DNA from: Pseudoalteromonas translucida KMM 520
GTDB lineage: Bacteria; Pseudomonadota; Gammaproteobacteria; Enterobacterales; Alteromonadaceae
Assembly: GCF_001465295.1 (NCBI RefSeq)
Contig: NZ_CP011034.1
Location: 1,350,001-1,382,000, forward strand
DNA: 32,000 bases
Direction of reading: 5' to 3'
A model generated the notes under the pieces. The model made no database searches, had not been told where the DNA came from, and saw nothing but the letters and a program-made list of their open reading frames with translations. Every line of letters starts with the position of its first letter. Position 1 is the stretch's first letter. Both the position numbers and the translations under genes were made by a program. Below are positions 14 to 12,274 of this stretch, piece by piece.

Positions 14-529
14 ATGACCTACACGCCGAAAGAGCTTGTAAACACTATAAAAACGCGTGCCATGATGGCCGATATGATGGAACGCCCTGAGTATTGGGAC
101 AAAATGGGCGCAGAGGTCGCCGCAAACTTTGGCCGTGGCACGAAAGCAAGCGCCGGCAAAGGTGGAGATAATGGGTATCAAAAGCAACTCAACTCGATAC
201 AAGATGAAATGACTAAAGCGCTCGCTAAAATCGAAGGCGGATCAGACCTGGACTACCTTGATGATGGTGGTAGAGAGGAAGCTAAAAACAGAGTTAAGAA
301 GCTTTATCAAGAGCGTATAGAGCAGCTACAGCAGTCTTACGGTACATCATCTAGCAGCAAGCCTACAAATTCTAATCAGACAAATGAATCTGTTAAATAC
401 ATTAGTAAAATAGATGGCGTTGATGCCAAGGGCGTTATCTCCAAATTCATGGAAGCGAACAAAAATTTATCAGAACAGCAAGCTACACAAATAGCCATTC
501 AGCAAGGGTATTTATCAAATGACCAATAA
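14..529 (+). CDS. Hypothetical protein of the acquired segment (171 aa; may extend 5' beyond the window)
   Basis: Open frame with ATG at 14; the frame is also open from position 2, so the true start may lie upstream of the window. Its stop overlaps the start of the giant ORF (ATGACCAATAA, 519-529), a typical translational-coupling arrangement. No recognisable motifs. Confidence 0.6.
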   Translation: MTYTPKELVNTIKTRAMMADMMERPEYWDKMGAEVAANFGRGTKASAGKGGDNGYQKQLNSIQDEMTKALAKIEGGSDLDYLDDGGREEAKNRVKKLYQERIEQLQQSYGTSSSSKPTNSNQTNESVKYISKIDGVDAKGVISKFMEANKNLSEQQATQIAIQQGYLSNDQ

Positions 530-3500
530 AATAGTAGATCCATTTACAAATAAAGAAATTGAGTTTGTTGATCCCTTTGCTGAGCCAGAAACTAAAAGTG
601 GGATGGCGGCAGCATTTGGAGCGGGAGTTGATAAAGTTGAAGAGCTAGGTTACCGCGCAGTAAAGGGCTTTACTGACACAGGCGAAAACCCAGATGATCA
701 CGAAGAGGGCTCGTTTTCTCAGTCGGTGGCAAAGGCAATTGGCAAAGGTGGCTCAGTTTCTAAATGGGCGCAAGAAGGCATCGATCGCAATGTTAAAGAG
801 CAGGAGGCATACGAGCCAACCGTTAAATCATATAAAGATATTGATGGGTTTGGTGACGCAGCCAGCTATACCGGCGAATTGCTGGCTGGCTCGCTACCCT
901 ACATGGCAGGCGCTGCTACTGGAATAGGCGCGCTTGGTATGGCTGGCGGTTTATCGCATGAGGCTTATGAAAAGCAGCCAGAAGGCGAAAAAGACGCGGC
1001 AAGAGCTGTTACATCGGGTGCCGCTCAAATGCTACTTGAGCGTTTAGGTATCAAGGTAAGCATGGGCCAACTTGGCAAAGATATTTTAAAAGATGGTGTG
1101 GTAGAAACCGCTAAGCGCATGGGCAAGGGAGAGCTTGTAGATGCTGTACGCGATCCAAGTTTTGCTAAGCGCATATTCAAAGGCGCTGTAGGCGAAGGCT
1201 TAACCGAGACAGGTCAAGAGGCACTAGCGCAATGGGGCGCAGGTAAAAGCATTGATGAATTTGAAGGGCTAGACGAAGCATTTGTAGGTGGTTTTGCGGT
1301 CGGTGGCGTAATGCGTACTGGCTCAGAGTCAGCGCAAAAGGTAATGGGATACCAGAAAAAAACAGCCGAAGCGGTAAAGCAAGGTGTAGATCAACTTGTT
1401 GAGGCAGGCGCAAGCCACGGTGAGGCAATTGATACTGTACGTAAACAGCAATATGACGCCGCTAAAAAGCAGGGGCTAAGTGAAGCAGAGGCGTCCGCAG
1501 TTGTTGCGCGCACCATGAAAGAAAAATTTGGCATTGACGATCCTTTGTTTGCAGCAGCAGCGGAGCCAGTGGCGGTGGAGTCGGTAGAAGCGGGCATGGA
1601 GCCAACCATACCCGAAGATACGCAAACACCTATTTTTCAAAATGATGAAGTGGATTTCGATGCGCCAACAGCAGCTAGACAGGCGGGATTTGATCAAACA
1701 AATAAAGCGGCCGGCCAATATGGGGATATGCTTACAAGCCCTGCGCAACAGTCATTAAGCGCTTTAGATGCAGGCAACAATGCGCCCACAGTAGACGAGC
1801 GAGTAAAGGCGGCGGCCTTTGATAAATCACCAACACCAGAAGATCGTTTTAGCCCAATAAAGTACCAGCATGAAGGCGATTTATTGGGGCCAGAGGCGCA
1901 AGACGCGCAAAGCATAGACAATGCCCCTATTGATGGGCAAACAGTGCCAGAACAAGGTAAGTTACCAACGGCAGAGCAAACACAAAGCCGGCAAATGCGT
2001 GAGCAAGCCCAAGTAGATCTTGAATCGCAGCCTAAAAGCATTGAGCAAAAAGATATTATTTTTGGTGAAGATGGCAGGCCGCAGCAGCGTGCAGCACAGC
2101 AGGTAAAGCAAGCTGGTAAAGACTCACAAAACTTATTGCCACAAAAAGATATTATTTTTGCTGACGATAATAGTGGGGTTAACGTTTCTAAAAATGGCGA
2201 GCCATTCAAAACTAAACGCGGTGCACTGCTAAGTAAAGAAGCTCGCGCAGCACGCAGAGCAGGCCAAAAAACAAAAGCAGTTAGCTTTGATAATGGTTTT
2301 GGCTGGGAGATTAAAGGCAGCGATATAAGTGCTGCACCTAATGCAGCTCCGGATATAAGTGCGGACAATACTAAAAGTACGCAACCGGCTGCCAGTTTAG
2401 CGGGCGAACCAATAGATAGTGAATGGACTGTGTTTAATCAGCAAAGCGAAACTAAAAATATTCCAAGGGCAGAAATGCCGCAAATTAAAGCGGAAAATCG
2501 CGGCGCATTGGTTAACTTTATGAAAGCGCGTGACATAAGTCATGAGCAAGACGAGGTAGCAGCAGCCTCATTAAAGCCAACGCAGCAAGAGTTTTCACCG
2601 GCCAAAGTTAAAAAGGCAATGGAGTTTGAAGGTGGTAATCGCTCTATACTTGTATCGAATGATGGCTATGTGCTCGACGGCCATCACCAGTGGTTAGCCG
2701 CCCGTGAAAAAGGTGAGCCAGTAAAAGTAACTCGCTTAAATGCGCCTATTGAGCAGTTGGTACCATTGGCCAAAGAAATGCCCAGCACTGAAACGCAGGG
2801 CGATAATAGTAAATTAATTACTGCTGATAACGATGAAACGGCCATTTCTAGTAAATTAAATACCCAGAATGATACTGAAAACGCAAAAATCAGTAAATTA
2901 AATGAAAGTGCCGAGCCTACCGCGCCGGTAACAAATGCCGCACCTAAATTAGATCGGGCAGAGGCTGAGTTGCCCGCAGTATTAAAGGTAAGCAAAACGA
3001 AATGGTTGCAGAGCCAAGCTAAAGAGCAGGGGCTAAAAAAAGGTTCGCCAGGCTTTGACGTTGCCATGGCCAAAATAGAAGAAGGTTACGAGCCAGCTAT
3101 TGATAGAGCGCTTGCTGAGTCGTCGTTTGAAACTTATAAAAAGTTTAACGACGATACGCCAGAGAGCATTAACCGCATGGCGCATAAAGAGCTGCGCAAA
3201 GAGTTTGGCATTGATGATACGCCACCGCCAATAAAAGAAGCCGTTAAGCCCGCTAAAAAAACAGAGCCGCCTAAGAGCGGTTTTTCTTTGCCTGAAAATC
3301 GGAATGTAAATGGCATGGCTGCCAATGAAATAGAAGCGATCATCAGCAAAACAAGTAACGACTTAGCCACAACAAGTAAAGAAGATTGGGGCAATTTACG
3401 CGGGCAAGGTAAGCGCGTTGGCGGCATGGTGATGGGTGGCATGCGTGATTCATCACTGCAAGGTGAAAAAGCTTACACTAACGTCATTGGTAAACTAGAG

Positions 3501-6500
3501 CAGGAAAGCAAGGCTGATTACGATGATGCAATAGCAACATTTAATGATGATAATAATGGCAAGATAGCCTATGGAAAAGCTAGAAGCGCGGGCTTTGATC
3601 ATGACACGTCACTGCGTTACGGGCTAAGCAAGGTAGCAAACATAGGAATGACTTTTGATGAGCTTTTAAATGTCGAAAGCAATAATGTCGGCGATAATGC
3701 GACACCTAAGACCAAGGGCGGCACGAATCCAGATGAAAGTAATCAAGCAACAGTCAAACAACCAGCAAGCGAGCCAGATCAGGCTAGCCCACAAGAGAGT
3801 ATTGATGACTTTGGAGAGAAGCTAGGTGGCGCGCGTAAAGATGCATGGAGCGGCTTTAGCGAAGCAATACAAGATCAGCAAAACACCGCTGAGCTACCAT
3901 TAAGCAAGGCATGGCCTGAGCCAAACTACAAAGAACTTGCAAGCACTGGTGCTAGCCTTGAGTCTATAGCGCTAATGGCTGCAATGCGCAGTGAAATACC
4001 ATCAAAACCAAGAGTTGCACGCAAGGTTGCAAGGTGGGCAAAAACAGTAAACGACTTAAAAGAATTTGCAGCAGACTTAATGAGCGGCGATCGCGATATA
4101 GCAACTGTAATGCAAAGCATGCGAAACCATAGCTCAAAGCTAGCCGCTGTTGTTGACGCCATACCCTCTATTGCAAAGGCTGATATTGATACATTAAAAA
4201 ACGTTGCAGATTACCGTATCTCTTCTGGTAGTTTTTCCGTATTTGGCGGTAAAACATATTCGCCTAGCAAGGTATTTTATTTTATAGAGCGCAATGGCCG
4301 CCCAGTTTATGACGGTGCCAGCGAAACATTAAGTGACGTACAAGCACTACTAACCAAGGTTGTCAAAGCGGAGCAGAGCGACACATCTAATGCGACAAGT
4401 GGCAAGAAAAGCAAAATTAGCGTTTACCGTGATCGATACACTAAAGATGTTTATTTGGGATGGAAAGGCGCAGGTGGCGTTTTAAAAATAAAGTCATTCG
4501 ACGATTTAGGTACCGCCAGAGAGTACCTTAAAAACAATCGCGAGGAAGTAGAGCAAACCCTACAAAAAATGAAAGAAACCCCAAGCATGCGTAAACCTGT
4601 TAATGCAGAGCGCGCGGGACCTGAGCGTTACGCAGGCAATGTAACACCAGAAACGTTTAGTGAAGCATTTGGCTTTAGAGGTGTTGAGTTTGGTAATTGG
4701 GTAGAGCAAGCTAAGCGACAAAAGGATTTAAACCAAGCATACGATGGCTTAATAGATTTAGCCGAAGCGCTCGACATACCACCAAAGGCGTTAAGCTTAA
4801 ACGGCAAACTAGGCCTTGCGTTTGGCGCGCGTGGTAAGGGCGGTAAAAACCCTGCAGCCGCACACTACGAACCAAACAGCGTTGTTATTAATCTTACCAA
4901 AAAGGCAGGCTCAGGATCTCTTGCGCATGAGTGGTGGCACGCCCTTGATAATTACTTTGGCAAGCAAAGGGCTAATACAGACTTTATTACTGAGTCGCCA
5001 TACACATTATCAACAGATGAAATTCGCCCTGAAATGGCAAGCGCTTTTAAACATGTAAGAAATGCCATTGTGCAAAGCGGGTTGCCTGAGCGCTCAAAGC
5101 AGTTAGACACTAGGCGATCTAAAGCTTATTGGGCAACGACAATAGAAATGACAGCGCGATCATTTGAAACTTACATAATAGACAAGCTAAGCCAGCAAGG
5201 TATAGAAAACGACTACCTTGCTAATGTTCTAGCTGATGATGCGTGGACAGCGGCAGAGTCACTAGGCTTTGAGTCCAGTAATTCATATCCATACCCAAAT
5301 AAAGCAGAGCAACAGGGAATAAATGCTGCATATCAAACATTGTTCGACACTATAGAAAGTGAAAACACCAGCGAAGGCATACGGTTATTCTCAAAATCTA
5401 AAAACCTTAACACTAGTAAGTCAATAAGCGCTGAGAAAGCCCAGGGTATTGCTGATGAGTTTGTTAAAAGCTTAAAAGGTGCTAACGGGATCACAGTAAG
5501 CATATTGGAGGACACCGCTACCGCAGAAAAGCTATGGCGTATGAGTTTGGACGGTGCGACAGTTAAAGGTGCTTACAGCGAAAACAGTAAAACAGTGTAT
5601 GTGATAGCCGAAAACATCGACAGTGAAAGCGACTTGAAGAAAACTTTGGCACACGAAACGATAGCTCACGGCGGCTTAGATACAGTAATTGGCGCCGATG
5701 CTAAGCAAGCATTTATTGATCGCATAAAAGCTACTAAGGGCCGCAAGGCATTTGAGAAATACTGGAAGGACGCAAACAACGACTATTGGGATGCAAGCCA
5801 GGACGTAAAAGCCGAAGAGATATTTGCCCGCTTTGTAGAAAACGAGCCCACCAAAGGCGAGCTTAAATATTGGTGGCAAGCACTTAAACGTTTTATACGT
5901 GCACAGCTTGATAAAGTAGGCCTGGCATATAGTGAAGATACAGAGCTAACCGCAATGCGCGAAATGCTTGAGAGTATAGTTAAGGGATTTAAAGCGCAGC
6001 GTGAGCCGATGACTAGCAGTCAAACTGAAATGGCTTACAGCCAATCTGATAAGAAATTCAGCCATACAACCAGCAATGGCAACAGCCAAACATCAAGCAA
6101 AATATCAGAGGCTATAAAAAAAGCAATCAACCGTGAGAGCCGCTTTGAAAAATCAAGAATGCCAGAGTGGGAGGCACTAAACGCTCAGTTAAGAGAGACA
6201 GATAAAACAACTGGCAGCAAAATAAAGCGCCAATTATCACGATGGATAATGCCTGGCGGAAACATGCCGGAAACAGTAAAACAGGCCGTTAGGGGGCGTG
6301 ATCGCGATGTGGCTGTGCATGAATTTGATATATCAATGCTGGTAGGAAAGTTAAATTCAGCAATAAAGTCTGCAAGTATCAATCCTGACAGGCTTACTGA
6401 TGATCAGTGGGCTAAATATCACCAGTTTTTAACTGGCGAAAATAATGGCTCGACACTTGGGCAAAGTGAGCGCGATGTGTTGGTGCTTATGCGGGAGCAT

Positions 6501-8816
6501 ATAGATGGCCTGACCCGCGATTATGTAGCAAGCGTAAATAATAAGCTGCAACAGCGATTGGCAGAGGATGGAGTGACCGACCCCAAAGAAGCTGCTCGCC
6601 TTGAAAAAATGCTAGGTAATGTAGGTAAATATTTAAACCGTAGTTATAAGGCCTTTGATGATAAGGAGTGGTTTAAGAAGATCCCCACGAAAGTTATTGA
6701 TGATGCCCGTACATACTTAATTAACCAGTATAAACGAGATGGACATGCAGCTGAGGAAGCTCAAAATAAAGCGCAGGTTACTTTAAATGAAATAGTAAAA
6801 ACTGGTACAGCTTACGAAAGCCTGGGCTCGTTTATTGCTGAGAGTAAACTTGGCTCTAAAGATCTTTCCACTTTAATACCGAGAAAAGATATATCGCCAG
6901 AAATTAGAGCTTTATTGGGTGAGTACGCAGACCCACGGATTAACTACGCTAAGTCAGTATCAAAAATGTCCTCTATGATCGCAAGCGACAAGTTGTTAAG
7001 TACAATACGCGATATGGGCATCAATAATTTTATTTTTGAAAAAGACACTCGGCCACCGGAGGCAACTGTTCAATTGGCGGGCGAAAAATCTGAGGTGTAT
7101 TCGCCGCTGAACGGTATGTGGACCACGCCAGAAATAAAAGAAGCATTTGAGGATGCAATGGGAACTGGTGGTGGCGAAGGGTGGCTTGATACAGCGATAC
7201 GAATTAATGGCTTTATAAAATACGGCAAAACAGTTTTATCACCCACAACGGCAATGCGTAATGTGATGTCATCTTACTTTTTCACAGTTGCAAATGGTCA
7301 CTTTAATCAAAAGTATATGAAGCAAGCCGTATCTGCTTTTAATGCGCAAGTTAAAGGTAAGGTTACTGATGGCGAGTCTGATTATATCAAACGCCTTATT
7401 AAGCTAGGTGTTTTGTATGACTCAGCAAACGCCGGTGAAATGGTCAAAATGATGACCGACGGAAAGATAAGCCAAATGCTAGAGGGCAAAGGTGGAGCTG
7501 CATTTGAAAGCTTACGATGGCTGACTGACAAGGCGACAGGCTTTTATCGCTTTGGCGATGACTTTTGGAAGATTGTCGGCTTTGAAAATGAAAAGGCAGC
7601 ACTCATAAGAACAGGCATGCCGCAAGGCGAGGCCGAATCAGTGGCCGCAGAGCGAATACAAGATACCTACCCAACATATAGCCGCGTTGGCAAAGCGGGG
7701 GTTTGGCTGTCAAGATTTCCGCTGGCTGGTACGTTTGTTTCATTTCCTGCTGAAATAGTTAGAACTACTGGCAACATGATCAAGCTTGCAGCTAGCGAAA
7801 TTAAATCAGACAACCCTAAAGTGCGCGCTATGGGAGCAAAACGAATTGTAGGTATAACTATGGCAAGTGGCGGCATGTTTGCTTTATCAGCCCTCAGCGC
7901 AGCAATGTTTGGTGTGACGGATGATGAAGAAGAAGCACTTAGGGACATGACAGCTGACTGGCAAAAAAACTCAACTTTCGTTTATGCAGGTAGGGATAGC
8001 GATGGGAATTTACGTTATTTTGATATGTCATTCTTAGACCCGTACGGATATTGGAAGCGCCCTATAGAAGCGATGATGCGAGATCAGCCAGTAGATAAAG
8101 CGATAGCATCATCATTAAGCGATATGATTTCGCCATTCTTAGGAGCCGATATAACTGCAGGGAAAATACTTGAAGTGCTTAGCAATAAAAAGCAAAGCGG
8201 TGGGCAAGTTTATAAAGAAAACGATACGGCCATTCGTAAAAGTGCAGATATTGCTGGGTACTTAGCATTAGGCCTAGCGCCAGGCGCAGTAAATAATGCT
8301 TGGCGAATTGGTATGGCGGCAGGTGATGTTAAGCGCTCGACAGGTAAGCCATATAGTTTGCCTGATGAAATGCTGGCACTAATGGGATTTCGTAGTTCAA
8401 CATTTGATCCCAAGGTTAGCCTTTATTATCGGACCTTTGACTTTAACAGCTCAATTGCAGAGGCTAGAAAAGAGCTAAGCGGTGTACTAAGAGATCCCAA
8501 TAAGGTGTCAGATGGCGAGATAAGTGCGGCTAAAGATCGAGCAAAATCAAAGCAAGAGCAGGCGTTTAAGCAAATGTCTCGCTTAATTCAGGCCGCGCAA
8601 ACTGGCGGAGCAAGTCGCCCTCAAGTTGTACGAATATTATTGTTAGCAGGTATTAGCAAGCGCAATGTTGGGTTTTTACTGCAAGGGCGAGTGCCGCCGG
8701 TTAATTTATCGGACACATCATATGAAAGCGCTGTAAAACGAGCTCAATTAATAATGGACAATGAATCAGCGAGGGAAATAAGAAGTCGATTTAACCGCAT
8801 AACTAGTAAGGATTAA
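519..8816 (+). CDS. Giant 2,765-aa multi-domain protein, polyvalent-protein-like (ParB-like module + HExxH zincin-like module + low-complexity linkers + hydrophobic segments)
   Basis: 8,298-nt uninterrupted ORF, which cannot arise by chance at this GC content. It contains LKPTQ...DGYVLDGHHQWLAA (ParB-like), FGFRGVEFGNW...LAHEWWHALDNYF (HExxH), Q/A/P-rich linkers, a glycine-rich hydrophobic N-terminal stretch (GELLAGSLPYMAGAATGIGALGMAGG) and a C-terminal TM-like stretch. The function is inferred, not demonstrated. Confidence 0.85.
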   Translation: MTNKIVDPFTNKEIEFVDPFAEPETKSGMAAAFGAGVDKVEELGYRAVKGFTDTGENPDDHEEGSFSQSVAKAIGKGGSVSKWAQEGIDRNVKEQEAYEPTVKSYKDIDGFGDAASYTGELLAGSLPYMAGAATGIGALGMAGGLSHEAYEKQPEGEKDAARAVTSGAAQMLLERLGIKVSMGQLGKDILKDGVVETAKRMGKGELVDAVRDPSFAKRIFKGAVGEGLTETGQEALAQWGAGKSIDEFEGLDEAFVGGFAVGGVMRTGSESAQKVMGYQKKTAEAVKQGVDQLVEAGASHGEAIDTVRKQQYDAAKKQGLSEAEASAVVARTMKEKFGIDDPLFAAAAEPVAVESVEAGMEPTIPEDTQTPIFQNDEVDFDAPTAARQAGFDQTNKAAGQYGDMLTSPAQQSLSALDAGNNAPTVDERVKAAAFDKSPTPEDRFSPIKYQHEGDLLGPEAQDAQSIDNAPIDGQTVPEQGKLPTAEQTQSRQMREQAQVDLESQPKSIEQKDIIFGEDGRPQQRAAQQVKQAGKDSQNLLPQKDIIFADDNSGVNVSKNGEPFKTKRGALLSKEARAARRAGQKTKAVSFDNGFGWEIKGSDISAAPNAAPDISADNTKSTQPAASLAGEPIDSEWTVFNQQSETKNIPRAEMPQIKAENRGALVNFMKARDISHEQDEVAAASLKPTQQEFSPAKVKKAMEFEGGNRSILVSNDGYVLDGHHQWLAAREKGEPVKVTRLNAPIEQLVPLAKEMPSTETQGDNSKLITADNDETAISSKLNTQNDTENAKISKLNESAEPTAPVTNAAPKLDRAEAELPAVLKVSKTKWLQSQAKEQGLKKGSPGFDVAMAKIEEGYEPAIDRALAESSFETYKKFNDDTPESINRMAHKELRKEFGIDDTPPPIKEAVKPAKKTEPPKSGFSLPENRNVNGMAANEIEAIISKTSNDLATTSKEDWGNLRGQGKRVGGMVMGGMRDSSLQGEKAYTNVIGKLEQESKADYDDAIATFNDDNNGKIAYGKARSAGFDHDTSLRYGLSKVANIGMTFDELLNVESNNVGDNATPKTKGGTNPDESNQATVKQPASEPDQASPQESIDDFGEKLGGARKDAWSGFSEAIQDQQNTAELPLSKAWPEPNYKELASTGASLESIALMAAMRSEIPSKPRVARKVARWAKTVNDLKEFAADLMSGDRDIATVMQSMRNHSSKLAAVVDAIPSIAKADIDTLKNVADYRISSGSFSVFGGKTYSPSKVFYFIERNGRPVYDGASETLSDVQALLTKVVKAEQSDTSNATSGKKSKISVYRDRYTKDVYLGWKGAGGVLKIKSFDDLGTAREYLKNNREEVEQTLQKMKETPSMRKPVNAERAGPERYAGNVTPETFSEAFGFRGVEFGNWVEQAKRQKDLNQAYDGLIDLAEALDIPPKALSLNGKLGLAFGARGKGGKNPAAAHYEPNSVVINLTKKAGSGSLAHEWWHALDNYFGKQRANTDFITESPYTLSTDEIRPEMASAFKHVRNAIVQSGLPERSKQLDTRRSKAYWATTIEMTARSFETYIIDKLSQQGIENDYLANVLADDAWTAAESLGFESSNSYPYPNKAEQQGINAAYQTLFDTIESENTSEGIRLFSKSKNLNTSKSISAEKAQGIADEFVKSLKGANGITVSILEDTATAEKLWRMSLDGATVKGAYSENSKTVYVIAENIDSESDLKKTLAHETIAHGGLDTVIGADAKQAFIDRIKATKGRKAFEKYWKDANNDYWDASQDVKAEEIFARFVENEPTKGELKYWWQALKRFIRAQLDKVGLAYSEDTELTAMREMLESIVKGFKAQREPMTSSQTEMAYSQSDKKFSHTTSNGNSQTSSKISEAIKKAINRESRFEKSRMPEWEALNAQLRETDKTTGSKIKRQLSRWIMPGGNMPETVKQAVRGRDRDVAVHEFDISMLVGKLNSAIKSASINPDRLTDDQWAKYHQFLTGENNGSTLGQSERDVLVLMREHIDGLTRDYVASVNNKLQQRLAEDGVTDPKEAARLEKMLGNVGKYLNRSYKAFDDKEWFKKIPTKVIDDARTYLINQYKRDGHAAEEAQNKAQVTLNEIVKTGTAYESLGSFIAESKLGSKDLSTLIPRKDISPEIRALLGEYADPRINYAKSVSKMSSMIASDKLLSTIRDMGINNFIFEKDTRPPEATVQLAGEKSEVYSPLNGMWTTPEIKEAFEDAMGTGGGEGWLDTAIRINGFIKYGKTVLSPTTAMRNVMSSYFFTVANGHFNQKYMKQAVSAFNAQVKGKVTDGESDYIKRLIKLGVLYDSANAGEMVKMMTDGKISQMLEGKGGAAFESLRWLTDKATGFYRFGDDFWKIVGFENEKAALIRTGMPQGEAESVAAERIQDTYPTYSRVGKAGVWLSRFPLAGTFVSFPAEIVRTTGNMIKLAASEIKSDNPKVRAMGAKRIVGITMASGGMFALSALSAAMFGVTDDEEEALRDMTADWQKNSTFVYAGRDSDGNLRYFDMSFLDPYGYWKRPIEAMMRDQPVDKAIASSLSDMISPFLGADITAGKILEVLSNKKQSGGQVYKENDTAIRKSADIAGYLALGLAPGAVNNAWRIGMAAGDVKRSTGKPYSLPDEMLALMGFRSSTFDPKVSLYYRTFDFNSSIAEARKELSGVLRDPNKVSDGEISAAKDRAKSKQEQAFKQMSRLIQAAQTGGASRPQVVRILLLAGISKRNVGFLLQGRVPPVNLSDTSYESAVKRAQLIMDNESAREIRSRFNRITSKD
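2460..2750 (+). other. ParB/sulfiredoxin-like (ParB N-terminal nuclease-like) module inside the giant ORF
   Basis: Translated segment: PRAEMPQIKAENRGALVNFMKARDISHEQDEVAAASLKPTQQEFSPAKVKKAMEFEGGNRSILVSNDGYVLDGHHQWLAAREKGEPVKVTRL. The LKPTQ motif and the hydrophobic-strand-DGHH-x3-A pattern (DGHHQ codons at 2676-2690) match my memory of ParBc/ParBc_2-type domains. Confidence 0.55.
4668..4965 (+). other. Zincin-like metallopeptidase-type module (HExxH) inside the giant ORF
   Basis: HEWWH is encoded at 4926-4940, within FGFRGVEFGNWVEQAKRQKDLNQAYDGLIDLAEALDIPPKALSLNGKLGLAFGARGKGGKNPAAAHYEPNSVVINLTKKAGSGSLAHEWWHALDNYFG. This resembles domains I recall from large polyvalent proteins of phages and conjugative elements. 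The exact family was not verified. Confidence 0.45.
7845..7916 (+). other. Predicted transmembrane or hydrophobic helix in the C-terminal third of the giant ORF
   Basis: IVGITMASGGMFALSALSAAMFGV is a 24-residue uncharged hydrophobic stretch followed by the acidic run TDDEEE. Confidence 0.5.
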
Positions 8817-8830
8817 CTTTTACAAGAGCA

Positions 8831-8856
8831 ACAAAAAGCCCGCAATTAAGCGGGCT
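8831..8856. repeat. Copy 1 of a 26-bp direct repeat, ACAAAAAGCCCGCAATTAAGCGGGCT (hairpin; terminator for the minus-strand cassette)
   Basis: Exact 26/26 match with 10117-10142. AGCCCGC / GCGGGCT forms a 7-bp stem with a 6-nt loop. The A-run on the plus strand becomes a U-run on the minus strand, so it is a good terminator for the convergent yafO-like gene. On the plus strand it is followed by ATCAGG (no T-run). Confidence 0.85.
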
Positions 8857-8865
8857 ATCAGGTAA

Positions 8866-9261
8866 TTAGTTTCTATTTCTAAAGTCATCAGCAGTTTGCT
8901 TGAGGCCACGCATATAACCATAATCTTTGCACTTTTCATGTGCGTTATTATGGATTACGGCAAATACGTAATGAGCCTCTTCATTCATATATCCATAAGT
9001 GTAGACGATATAGGAATCAGAAGTTTTATTTCTTTCCCACTTATCAGGGCAAGATACTCCTTCGATATATATATGAAGGTGGTGTACCTCAGAATCTTGA
9101 ATATTATCAGGCCGCAAAAAGGGTGCATCTTTACCTATGTAATGAGGCTTCTCTTGTGTGGTGAAATAAGTCTTAAGATCTTTTTTTAAAGGCTCTACAT
9201 CTTTGCCGAGTTTTTTTATTCCGGCTTCAAGTGATGCGCTAAACTGTAATGATACTTCCAA
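8866..9261 (-). CDS. YafO-family mRNA interferase-like toxin (131 aa, TTG start)
   Basis: The length and the pattern IGKDAPF...VHHLHI...NKTSDSYIVYTYG...AHYVFAVIHNNAHEKCKDYGYMRGLKQTADDFRNRN align by eye with E. coli YafO (FGRDA...VAHIHL...SRTNDEAHLVYCQG...AWLLIAILKPEPHKLARDNNQMHKIGKMAEAFRMRF, recalled from memory). The only in-frame start is TTG at 9261, with a weak SD. The gene begins 14 nt after the stop of the upstream ORF. Confidence 0.6.
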   Translation of the reverse strand: MEVSLQFSASLEAGIKKLGKDVEPLKKDLKTYFTTQEKPHYIGKDAPFLRPDNIQDSEVHHLHIYIEGVSCPDKWERNKTSDSYIVYTYGYMNEEAHYVFAVIHNNAHEKCKDYGYMRGLKQTADDFRNRN

Positions 9262-9275
9262 TGTAAATTTCTCAG

Positions 9276-9815
9276 TTAATGAATATTAAAAATCTCATTA
9301 CTAACTGCGTTAGCTGCTATAAAAAAATCTTCAGAAGGTGTGAAACTGCAATTTTTATTAACAGAAGTCTCTTTTAAAGAGCTTCCTAATACTCTACAAA
9401 TATTAGATATATTCTTTCTCAACTGCCCAGATTTAGAAACTAAGTCTTTAAAGTTTTGATGAACTACAGGGCCGTGTGCATTTAATATATCTTGGTTGTA
9501 AAGGCTCCAATTTCTTTTCAGGTATTCAGACACACCACGAAGAGCTAAATCTAGACTAACTAAATCATCTAAGTTTGCTAAGGTTTCTTGGTTAACGGTG
9601 TCAGAATTAGACAGATCAAAATAAACCTGACGAGCTTGAAGTAAAGTTTTATCAAGTTGTACTAATTTTTGCCCAAGCCTAATAGATATATCACTAGCAC
9701 TTATATTAGTAGCTACTGACTTGCTTGGTATTAAAAAACTAACCTCTTCCGAAGCATTAACGGAAAAAGCACTGGAAACCAAAGTTGCTAACAACATAAC
9801 AGTCCCCTTAAACAT
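9276..9815 (-). CDS. Secreted hypothetical protein (179 aa with Sec-type signal peptide)
   Basis: ATG at 9815 is preceded by AGGAG at a 7-nt spacing; the track ORF starts 8 codons earlier at 9839. The N-terminus MFKGTVMLLATLVSSAFSVNA/SEE has a signal-peptide n-h-c architecture with an AxA-like site. The rest looks helical with no recognisable motif. AT-rich. Confidence 0.6.
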   Translation of the reverse strand: MFKGTVMLLATLVSSAFSVNASEEVSFLIPSKSVATNISASDISIRLGQKLVQLDKTLLQARQVYFDLSNSDTVNQETLANLDDLVSLDLALRGVSEYLKRNWSLYNQDILNAHGPVVHQNFKDLVSKSGQLRKNISNICRVLGSSLKETSVNKNCSFTPSEDFFIAANAVSNEIFNIH

Positions 9816-10116
9816 AGCGATACTCCTAGTATAGCGCATTAAATCAAACTACTTCATTCTAACTAACAATAAAATAGTGCGCAGATTATCCATGTATTGA
9901 GATAGAAAACAAGGAAAATAGAAAAATCAGTATAAATAATTATACCTAACAGGCCTTAATAAGGGCTTAATTATGATCTATTTTAATGCCAATTCCATCA
10001 CTTACAGAAGTTACACTATACATATGAGATAGATTTATCAACAAAAGTTTGAATAGATTGTTGGCATTAGCTGTATTGGGACGCGGCACAAGCAGGCTAG
10101 CTGAAAAGCGTTACTC

Positions 10117-10142
10117 ACAAAAAGCCCGCAATTAAGCGGGCT
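10117..10142. repeat. Copy 2 of the 26-bp direct repeat (hairpin followed by TTTT)
   Basis: Identical 26-mer to copy 1, here followed by TTTT (10143-10146) and preceded by an A-run, so it is a bidirectional intrinsic-terminator shape. No plus-strand gene ends immediately upstream of it. Confidence 0.85.
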
Positions 10143-10256
10143 TTTACAGAGTATCGAGTCATCAACCTACAATTATAATATCGTGCTGTATTATGATTGC
10201 GTAATAAAGCTATAATAGGTTTGTTGTTAAGTCTACGACAAATTTACAAATTCCCC

Positions 10257-10286
10257 CTTGAAATACCCACCGACAAGCACAATATT
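10257..10286 (+). promoter_or_regulatory. Putative sigma32 (RpoH) heat-shock promoter of htpG
   Basis: CCCCCTTGAAA (-35; CTTGAAA at 10257-10263), a 14-nt spacer, then CACAATAT (6/8 to CCCCATNT), about 70 nt upstream of the htpG ATG. Confidence 0.55.
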
Positions 10287-10357
10287 TCAGTCATGGTAAG
10301 AACTTCAATTATTCACTTGTGTACCAAAGTGTGTACCAAATAATGAAAGGTAACATT

Positions 10358-12274
10358 ATGACAAATCAAAAAGACATTACAAAACATGAGTTTGGAACAG
10401 ACGCGGGTAAGATACTCAACTTAATGATCCATTCTCTTTATTCTAATAAAGAAATATTTTTACGTGAACTTGTGTCAAATGCCTCAGATGCAGCAGACAA
10501 GTTACGCTTTTTAGCATTATCACAAGGTGATCTGTACCAAGGCGACGCTGACTTACGTGTACGTATTAGCGCTGACAAAGAAGCTAACACCATTACTATT
10601 TCTGATAATGGTATTGGTATGACACGCGATGAAGTAATAAGCTCATTGGGTACTATTGCAAAATCGGGTACTGCTGAATTTTTCAAAAACTTAACTGGCG
10701 ATCAAAGTAAAGACTCGCAGTTAATTGGTCAGTTTGGTGTTGGTTTTTACTCAGCATTTATTGTGGCAGATTTAGTAACGGTACGTACCCGTAAAGCCGG
10801 CGAAACAACGGCTTACGAGTGGGAGTCTCAAGGTGAAGGCGAGTACACGCTGCAAGAAATTGAAAAAGAGGGCCGTGGTACCGACATTATTTTACATCTT
10901 CGCGAAGAAGAAAAAGAGTTTGCTGATGAGTGGCGCCTGCGCAGCATAGTGACTAAATACTCGGATCATATTTCGACCCCAGTACAAATGTACAAAGCAG
11001 AAGTACCAGAGTCTGAAGGTGAAGATGGCGAAAAAATCCCAGCAGTACCAGGTGAGTGGGAAAGTATTAACCGCGCTACTGCACTGTGGACTCGTGATAA
11101 GTCAGAGCTTTCAGATGACGAATACAAAGAGTTTTACAAACACGTAAGCCACGATTGGGAAGACCCACTAAGCTGGGCGCATAACAAGGTAGAAGGTAAA
11201 ACTGAATACACTAGTTTGTTATACATCCCTAAAAAAGCGCCATTCGACTTATGGAATCGTGATCGCCAAAGTGGTTTAAAACTGTACGTACAGCGCGTAT
11301 TTATCATGGATGACGCTGAACAGTTCATGCCAAGTTATTTACGTTTTGTAAAAGGGTTATTGGACTCAAACGATTTACCACTAAACGTATCTCGCGAAAT
11401 TTTACAAGACAACAAAGTAACGCAAGCTATTCGTAAAGGGTGTACATCGCGTATTATTAAAATGCTTGAGCGTATGGCTAAAAACAAAGCTGACGATTAC
11501 CAAGTATTTTGGAATGAATTTGGTCAAGTGATCAAAGAAGGCCCTGCAGAGGATGCAGCTAATAAAGAAGCAATTTGTAAACTATTACGTTTTTCTTCTA
11601 CGCATACCGATTCAGCAACGCAAGATGTATCGCTTGAGCAATATGTTGAGCGCATGAATGAAGGCCAAGACAAAATATACTACGTAGTGGCTGACACGTT
11701 TACTGCTGCGAAAAACTCTCCGCATTTAGAGATTTTCCGTAAAAAAGGCATTGAAGTATTACTGCTAAGCGACCGTGTAGATGAGTGGATGATGAGCCAC
11801 TTAACTGAATTTGCTGATAAGCAACTACAATCAATCACCCGTGGTGATTTAGACTTAGGTAAGCTTGACGACGAAGAGACTAAAAAAGCGCAAGAAGAGT
11901 CTGAAAAAGAAGTTGCCGGTTTAGTAGAGCGTATTAAAACGGCGTTAGGTGATGAAGTTAAAGAAGTACGCTTTACGCATCGTTTAACCGACTCTCCAGC
12001 ATGTGTTGTTAGCGATGACAACGACATGAGCTCACAAATGCAAAAGCTAATGGAGTCGGTTGGTCAAGCTGCTCCTGAAGCAAAACCTGTGTTTGAGCTA
12101 AACCCAGAGCATCAACTTGTTAAGCATTTAAATGATGAGCAAGACGAAGATAAGTTTGCACAGTGGTCGCATGTACTACTTGACCAAGCGCTACTTGCAG
12201 AGCGTGGCACACTTAAAGACCCTACAGGGTTTGTAACTCGCTTAAATAAACTAATGCTTGAATTAAGCAAATAA
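10358..12274 (+). CDS. htpG: Molecular chaperone HtpG (Hsp90)
   Basis: [51 protein letters not shown] is near-identical in pattern to the E. coli HtpG N-terminus. ATG at 10358 is preceded by AAAGG. The track's GTG start at 10319 is an upstream extension. Confidence 0.97.

Follow-up and report, generated by a model that had tools for sequence, protein, structure and literature searches.

The hairpin pair and the cassette between its copies

The window, by which we mean the whole stretch of 32,000 nt from Pseudoalteromonas translucida KMM 520 analysed here (contig NZ_CP011034.1, positions 1,350,001 to 1,382,000), holds between a giant phage gene and htpG a small AT-rich cassette of two genes that is bordered on both sides by the same hairpin. 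The repeat, ACAAAAAGCCCGCAATTAAGCGGGCT, is found exactly twice, on the plus strand at 8831-8856 and 10117-10142, in direct orientation and with an identity of 26/26, and its flanks diverge at once (GAGCA versus TACTC on the left, ATCAGG versus TTTACA on the right), as a preliminary description of this DNA had reported. No third copy lies within the 32-kb window even when 3 mismatches are allowed, and none of the shuffles in a control (0/100) gave a match. Comparison with related phages suggests that such hairpins mark the place where the cassette enters and leaves a phage genome, probably through short-homology recombination.

Each copy folds into a 7-bp G+C stem with a 6-nt loop, and both are predicted to be phage transcription terminators. 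Copy 1 (8831-8856, -14.5 kcal/mol) would act as the intrinsic terminator of the minus-strand cassette: it begins 10 nt past the stop codon of the YafO-family gene, it is detected as a terminator-like site on the minus strand, where it reads AGCCCGCTTAATTGCGGGCT followed by TTTTTGT, and a good T-run exists on that strand only, the plus strand having no T-tract (GCGGGCT is followed directly by ATCAGG). The same junction, GxGGGCT followed by ATCAG(A/G)TAATTA, recurs in three related loci (L055, L072 and L073) and as the variant ATTAGATAATTA in a fourth (L074), with left neighbours that all differ. The 14 nt between the stop codon of the giant gene and copy 1 might hold a remnant of the 3' end of a pRha/ANT antirepressor-like gene ("ANT-like" below), the match being of 8 nt only. 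Copy 2 (10117-10145) looks like a complete bidirectional terminator, AAAAAGCCCGC-AATTAA-GCGGGCTTTT, with A/T-tracts on both sides, and folds at -23.8/-25.4 kcal/mol when these tracts and a fortuitous outer stem (TACTC...GAGTA) are included; the outer stem is not kept in L072 and is put down to chance. As had been remarked at the outset, copy 2 terminates no gene in the window, htpG and the cassette both reading away from it.

The cassette itself (8857-10116, 1,260 bp, minus strand) has a GC content of 34.2%, close to the approximately 33% first estimated for a sampled block, versus 45.1% in the giant open reading frame (ORF) and 39.4% in the chromosomal part of the window. It contains only two ORFs of at least 100 aa, both on the minus strand and 14 nt apart, which correspond to the yafO-like gene and the gene for a secreted-type protein recognized in the preliminary description; two short plus-strand ORFs (97 and 74 aa) overlap the first of them. 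No terminal inverted repeats were seen in the cassette apart from the hairpins themselves, and no recombinase, transposase, reverse transcriptase or nuclease domain was found in it with Pfam, PHROG, NCBIfam or PADLOC, in agreement with the earlier view of a cassette lacking its own integrase. No Rfam family reaches threshold on the cassette, the sub-threshold matches being to attenuator leaders only and caused by the terminator shape. At the nucleotide level the cassette is 94.7% identical to that of L072 (window 8818-10440) and 94.4% identical to that of L055, the latter over window 8830-9261 only, where the L055 contig ends; it has no match among GenBank phages.

Hairpins and cassettes in related phages

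Related loci were reoriented to the window and their perfect G+C hairpins were listed; in what follows a hairpin is labelled by its stem type (G or T) and its loop (in lower case), and two types of cassette, I and II, are distinguished. Most of the boundaries read in the accessory region carry one terminator design, consisting of an A-tract, AGCCC(G/T)C, a loop of 4-8 nt, G(C/A)GGGCT and a T-tract. Hairpins of this family stand at every boundary of the window, L072, L076 and L069, and a different hairpin occupies a few giant-gene boundaries (L050, L051, L052, L054, L055 and L088). Two positions of the stem show compensatory changes, from GC to UA/AU, with 95% of cells pairing versus 21-61% with a slid partner, a pattern that fits selection for the hairpin.

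Read from left to right, the window runs from the giant gene through G/aattaa, a type I cassette and a second G/aattaa to the right arm of the phage. L072 and L073 have, after the giant gene, a hairpin with the loop ttaa, a DUF4325 gene, a hairpin with the loop tcca and a 60-aa reading frame, followed by the same succession of G/aattaa, type I cassette, G/aattaa and right arm. An ANT-like gene precedes the type I cassette in L055, where T/aattaa lies between them and the contig then ends, and in L074, where the hairpin is G/aattaa. Type II cassettes are found in L076 (giant gene, G/cttaactg, cassette, G/cataactg, a 69-aa gene, G/aattaa, right arm), in L077 (ANT-like gene, T/aattaa, cassette, G/tataaa, right arm) and in L087 (ANT-like gene, T/aattaa, cassette, T/aattaa, right arm). 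The cassette is absent from L049, L052 and L053, in which an ANT-like gene, a T-type hairpin and the right arm follow one another, and from L069, which reads giant gene, G/cttaactg, 69-aa gene, G/aattaa, right arm and htpG.

This survey yielded two pairs of empty and occupied sites. In the first, L053 has an ANT-like gene, one 31-bp hairpin, AAACAAAAAGCCCTCAATTAAGAGGGCTTTT, and the right arm, and L087 has the same AAACAAAAAGCCCTCAATTAAGAGGGCTTTT on either side of a 1,213-bp cassette; the two loci are 97.6% identical on the left, through to the last base of this hairpin, and 99.0% identical on the right, counted from its first base. In the second, L069 has one hairpin between the giant gene and the 69-aa gene where L076 has two around the cassette, and the flanks, 93% and 91% identical, overlap by 30 bp on L069. 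The single hairpin of L069 is a hybrid: its left arm and loop correspond to those of the left L076 copy and its right end to that of the right copy, which places the crossover inside the shared TAACTGCGGGCTTT. Copy 2 of the window is homologous to the one hairpin that cassette-free relatives have at the end of the ANT-like gene or of the 69-aa gene, and in L052, L053 and L069 homology to the window begins exactly at copy 2 (10117-10119).

A mosaic points the same way. As far as the G/aattaa hairpin, L072 agrees with L069 at 98.5% identity, and beyond it carries the window-type cassette, the second hairpin and a right arm that together share 94.7% identity with the window and only 70% with L069; on these alignments, the hairpin of the window is the exact site of a mosaic joint. 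One and the same cassette follows five different left neighbours, to each of which a hairpin joins it, and the left hairpin follows the neighbour rather than the cassette type, being T-type after the ANT-like gene with or without a cassette. Within each genome the flanking copies are identical or nearly so, and between genomes they are class-specific (G/aattaa twice, T/aattaa twice, G/c(t/a)taactg twice); the two copies agree exactly over 26 bp in the window, over 23 bp in L072 and over 31 bp in L087, and in L076 the shared stretch has 14 bp within approximately 27 bp. The insertion point of type I is always directly 3' of GxGGGCT, and types I and II meet the hairpin at different offsets.

The region also shows a rearrangement of another kind. 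A block of approximately 210 bp with a 69/70-aa hydrophobic ORF lies inside the right arm in L049 (9570-9816) and L077 (reverse, ~9300-9530), and between two hairpins in L076 (reverse, ~10811-11200) and L069 (reverse, 9637-10100), where the right-arm motif TTAAGTCTA occurs twice. This doubling looks like a partial duplication of the arm.

It had been suggested at first, as an alternative, that the 26-mer might be a genome-wide repeat, and among the genomes searched, of which the complete source genome was not one, there is no sign of a high-copy element of that sort. The exact 24-mer core, AAAAAGCCCGCAATTAAGCGGGCT, was found at 47 loci (L001-L047) among 185,579 species genomes, with one match per locus and at most 2 loci per assembly; none of the 47 is a source-species locus. 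They fall into ~20 unrelated orthologous groups in other genera, and none is near htpG, YafO, sec187 (the secreted-type gene of the cassette) or the giant gene. Nine orthologous Glaciecola/Brumicola loci and several from Pseudomonas, Pantoea and Klebsiella are included. In IMG/VR the 24-mer occurs on 15 contigs, once each, two of which belong to the phage family studied. Since it appears as a single-copy hairpin at ~20 unrelated conserved loci, we take the 24-mer to recur as an ordinary terminator.

The prophage, its junction with htpG and its cargo

From position 1 to approximately 10433, the window is the right end of a temperate Pseudoalteromonas phage of ~50 kb that is integrated in the 5' end of htpG. 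The htpG product of the window has no identical record, but its 99% identity to the HtpG P0001 marks the organism as a Pseudoalteromonas. The limit of the prophage is given by an empty site, L048, the contig on which P0001 is encoded, whose gene order is the usual dnaX-ybaB-recR ... pseudouridine synthase-htpG-adk, with no giant gene. L048 matches the window, at 97.4% nucleotide identity, only from 10418 on, that is, 60 nt inside htpG; it differs in the first ~20 htpG codons and the whole upstream region, and it has neither such a hairpin upstream nor the 275 bp to the right of copy 2. The match starts at the attachment (att) core AACTTAATGATCCATT (attR, 10418-10433), within htpG codons 21-26. 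L048 is a site with no island at all, one of the empty forms that the preliminary description proposed to look for.

Contigs in the attP form (L052, L053 and L072) match the window up to the att core and then diverge toward an integrase: their right arm runs past AACTTAATGATTCATT into different sequence and a tyrosine integrase (PF00589 + Arm-DNA-bind_3). Where attP-form contigs carry the cassette, it travels with the phage, beside the integrase. As the prophage reaches the att core, both hairpins and the cassette lie within it, approximately 300 bp from its right end, and the initial idea that the cassette had been accreted next to a larger acquired element has to be given up.

The right arm (10143-10417, plus strand), which is kept in related phages, provides htpG with a replacement promoter region and with its first ~20 codons, so that the gene in the window (10358-12274, plus strand) is a chimera of a phage-derived 5' end and the chromosomal gene. 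The arm contains a sigma-32-like -35 box, CTTGAAA (~10258-10264), with CACAATAT 14 nt further on; in the compared region of L048 (~10001-10073), the native site reads CTTGAAG-N13-CCCCATAT. Since the prophage replaces the native promoter and carries such a box in its arm, the phage may mimic or alter the heat-shock control of htpG.

The giant gene (519-8816, plus strand, 2765 aa) is the conserved left neighbour of the accessory region. Its protein matches PHROG virion structural and large-protein families, including phrog_22602 "virion structural protein", and its homologs have LPD1/LPD5/LPD38 polyvalent-protein domains. The gene is 79-80% identical in nucleotide sequence to L049-L055, with homology stopping at 8815, and is present on six IMG/VR viral contigs of 48-56 kb. 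In L049 a homologous giant gene with LPD1/LPD5 is accompanied by 3.6 kb of different cargo (Arc-like and ANT-like genes), and this locus shares the window's upstream arm and substitute htpG 5' end from window 10186. The nearest cultured relative is Pseudoalteromonas phage vB_Pun_Y3 (L091, OR779980.1), where the giant genes give way to a hairpin of similar make, AAAAAAGGCCCGT-ataaa-ACGGGCCTTTT, and to the right-arm motif GTTAAGTCTACGAG, and where neither a cassette nor an integrase adjoins them. The IMG/VR contigs of L052-L055, the cassette-bearing one included, also encode a single-strand annealing protein of the Rad52/22 family (PF04098); its gene (L092-L102; 20688-21629 in L091) lies near SSB and MT-A70 methyltransferase genes.

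The downstream gene of the cassette (8866-9261, minus strand, 131 aa, TTG start) belongs to the YafO family (Pfam PF13957, YafO_toxin, 3.3e-20; phrog_1651, 1e-21). Because its score against the NCBIfam YafO equivalog (8e-14, 52 bits) is below the 153-bit cut-off, we regard the product as a family member and not as an equivalog; PADLOC gave no match for it. The upstream gene, sec187 (9276-9839, minus strand), encodes 187 aa, or 179 aa from the likely true start, Met9 at 9815. Its product has a conserved, hydrophobic, signal-peptide-like N-terminus (MxKGTVMLLATLVSSA) and an AlphaFold model that is a helical bundle (predicted local distance difference test, pLDDT, 77), and no PDB neighbour of the model was found at E<=0.001. 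The protein has no family in Pfam, PHROG, NCBIfam or PADLOC and no relatives in IMG/VR, where YafO itself is present only on the L055 contig, which ends within the cassette.

The two genes are adjacent in every related contig with a readable neighbour gene, at a partner identity of 43-98%. Across L072-L090 the YafO partner is an uncharacterised helical protein of 179-190 aa with the conserved signal-peptide-like N-terminus, which stands in place of a YafN-type antitoxin. A secreted-like partner is unusual for a toxin of the cytoplasmic mRNA-interferase type, and judging from sequence and structure model, the pair should probably not be called a canonical toxin-antitoxin pair. One possibility, an unlikely one, is that YafO and a secreted or membrane partner form a new kind of toxin-partner or exclusion system, a lysogenic-conversion module. 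The genes would be expressed from the region upstream of sec187 (9840-10116, minus strand, 32% GC), the presumed promoter, which is partly conserved between types I and II; no sigma-70-like promoter matching at 9 or more of 12 positions was found there, and the 8/12 matches, one of which has a perfect TATAAT (minus strand, ending at ~9939), amount to a weak prediction. A 45%-identical gene pair lies elsewhere in a chromosomal array of small minus-strand ORFs (L081, 5600-12546; GCA_037027245.1, JAYMDY010000004.1), whose repeat units are spaced by ~850-880 bp; inverted motifs of 30-40 nt (GGCAAAAAGAxAGACCTGACCC and its complement) lie on either side of the pair, and this locus may be an integron-like or other cassette array.

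Proposed gain and loss of the cassette

We suggest that the cassette is probably gained and lost reversibly by short-homology recombination between near-identical terminator hairpins of 26-31 bp. A crossover between the flanking direct repeats would delete the cassette and leave one hairpin, sometimes a hybrid, and could release a circle consisting of the cassette and one hairpin. The cassette would reach another hairpin by the reverse reaction, or when two phage genomes in the same cell cross over at a hairpin. The likely catalyst is the phage's own Rad52-type annealing protein, as Rad52-like recombinases generate mosaics among temperate phages with relaxed homology needs (PMC3945230). A precedent is offered by T4-type phages: where one phage has an ORF between two promoter-early stem-loops (PeSLs), its sister has just one PeSL in their place, and mini-circles have been detected (PMC2839356). 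Homology-driven recombination at the hairpin, one of the two routes named in the preliminary description, is the best mechanism, and the terminator does appear once where the cassette is absent and twice where it is present.

Several points weigh against this proposal. Efficient homologous recombination usually asks for more than 26-31 bp, the sequences do not show whether an event was an insertion or a deletion, and gene conversion could also yield identical copies. The cassette-free form of the window's own arrangement, with the giant gene, a G/aattaa hairpin and the right arm, was not found among the related loci. In L077 the cassette lies between unlike hairpins (T/aattaa versus G/tataaa) that share only 13 bp, the hairpins of L088 are also unlike, and a 48%-diverged gene pair (L085, which likewise adjoins htpG, L089 and L090) is without such hairpins. 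Identical flanks are therefore not required, and the repeats are frequent but not obligatory companions of the cassette; with these five loci, one of the observations that the preliminary description had named as refuting its reading, relatives with the cassette but no flanking repeats, is in part made.

The same exceptions could be taken to mean that the two copies are merely related terminators with no role in mobility, identical through common descent, structural constraint or occasional gene conversion, and that module exchange relies on illegitimate joining or on ordinary recombination within the long stretches of conserved flanking sequence. Similar hairpins stand at most boundaries of the region, the stem is under structural constraint, in other genera ~20 unrelated loci have acquired or retained the same 24-mer as a terminator in single copy, L077, L088 and L085 hold the cassette without matching repeats, and the hairpins have barely changed while the cassettes of the window and L072 have diverged by ~5%. 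We nevertheless consider this explanation unlikely: the copies within a genome share class-specific loops and A/T tracts that differ between genomes, the breakpoints fall exactly at the hairpin edges in two empty/occupied pairs, one of which leaves a hybrid hairpin, and illegitimate joining is not expected to strike the same 30 bp repeatedly. A similarly low probability attaches to template switching (copy choice) during replication, in which a stalled or slipped polymerase would jump between the hairpins of sister or co-infecting genomes with no need for a recombinase. Hairpin-forming palindromes are known slippage and deletion hot spots, and the products expected (one versus two hairpins, and a hybrid hairpin) equal those observed. 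Sequence alone does not separate this process from annealing-based recombination; nothing specific speaks in its favour, and the phage encodes a dedicated annealing protein.

It is decidedly improbable that a trans-acting enzyme of phage or host inserts the cassette, as a non-autonomous element, at terminator hairpins and duplicates the whole 26-31-bp target, by possible analogy with group IIC introns, IS200/IS605 or insertion sequence (IS) elements that target repetitive extragenic palindromic (REP) sequences. The same cassette does occur between duplicated copies of three different hairpins, as target duplication predicts, and type I is always inserted at the same point of GxGGGCT. On the other hand, the cassette has no transposase, reverse transcriptase, nuclease, terminal inverted repeats, structured ends or above-threshold Rfam family, types I and II join the hairpin at different offsets, there is no duplication in L077 and L088, and target duplications of 26-31 bp are, to our knowledge, not a signature of transposition. 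If it were true, hairpin targeting by a phage enzyme would be a mechanism of mobility without a cassette recombinase, distinct from integrons, IS200/IS605 and group IIC introns. There is, lastly, hardly any likelihood left for the first interpretation of copy 2, as an ancestral chromosomal terminator or attachment sequence upstream of htpG beside which the cassette was accreted separately from the acquired element. In the window alone, copy 2 does lie between foreign-looking DNA and htpG and terminates nothing, but the empty site L048 lacks the hairpin and the 275 bp to its right, the homology starts at the att core inside htpG, and hairpin, cassette and right arm are all found in excised or attP-form phage contigs next to the integrase. 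The first three of these alternatives, namely functionally unrelated terminators with gene conversion, template switching and a hairpin-targeting enzyme, are less well supported than short-homology recombination.

The two empty/occupied pairs and the hybrid junction thus provide a natural example in which a terminator hairpin of 26-31 bp marks the entry and exit of accessory genes in a temperate phage, and extend to a temperate family of marine phages the PeSL idea taken from virulent T4-type phages. The family could also serve as a simple system for studying the minimal homology length usable by phage annealing proteins. For annotation, the boundary of the island should be placed inside htpG and not at the hairpin, and the toxin-like cassette should be treated as prophage cargo that can be lost or swapped. 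We regard the duplicated-terminator cassette as a clear yet fairly ordinary case of phage accessory-gene gain and loss at short repeated terminators.

The arrangement can be compared with several known systems. REP repeats and bacterial interspersed mosaic elements (BIMEs) are present in tens to hundreds of copies per genome behind unrelated genes; the 26-mer has two copies in 32 kb, and the 24-mer no more than 2 loci per assembly in the genomes searched. Transposons, IS elements and miniature inverted-repeat transposable elements (MITEs) have terminal inverted repeats and a transposase acting in cis or in trans; in the cassette no such repeats, apart from the hairpins themselves, and no transposase domain were found. 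A small promoter-poor unit bounded by palindromes and without its own recombinase resembles an integron cassette with its attC site. Real attC sites are longer, imperfect palindromes with conserved core motifs, whereas the hairpin here is 26-31 bp long with a perfect 7-9-bp stem and, by inspection, no GTTRRRY-type core; there is no integron integrase nearby, and the integrase beside the attP-form relatives is of the phage type with an arm-binding domain (PF00589 + Arm-DNA-bind_3). Readings as an IS element or a group II intron were rejected, as their defining features are lacking; the integron reading was set aside more provisionally, by inspection and not with a formal attC or IntI model.

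With the type II system YafN-YafO of Escherichia coli the cassette shares a downstream YafO-family gene that is closely coupled in translation to an upstream partner, across a 14-nt gap, and always occurs together with it. The partner here differs: it is a helical protein of 179-187 aa with a signal-peptide-like N-terminus and no family match, and is not YafN/Phd-like, for which reason an antitoxin function is doubtful. The likeness to phage morons (Juhala/Hendrix; PMC3594210) is closer, in that some members of the family have an additional transcription unit that close relatives lack, a unit that differs in GC content from its neighbours (34% versus 45%), probably has its own terminator, and lies near the prophage end, where a lysogen can express it; classical descriptions do not include a duplicated terminator on both sides, and the promoter here is weakly predicted. 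The relaxed recombination by Rad52-like phage recombinases (De Paepe et al. 2014, PMC3945230) likewise concerns a temperate family with a Rad52/22-type protein and mosaic joints that bear traces of short homology at their borders, and in our phages the protein would have to act on 26-31 bp.

The nearest counterpart is the PeSL cassette of the T4-type phages RB49 and phi1 (Arbiol et al. 2010, PMC2839356). PeSLs are ~100 bp long, include a strong early sigma-70 promoter and belong to virulent myoviruses, in which the mini-circles were detected, whereas the repeat of the window would be a 26-31-bp bidirectional terminator alone, in a temperate phage with a Rad52-type protein. In both, short repeated terminator stem-loops flank non-essential ORFs in a plastic region, and two motifs around an ORF in one phage have as their counterpart a single motif in a close relative, here in L087/L053 and L076/L069. 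By analogy, the mechanism proposed for PeSLs, reversible recombination between the motifs, possibly via a circle, is the one that we propose for the hairpins of this marine phage family.

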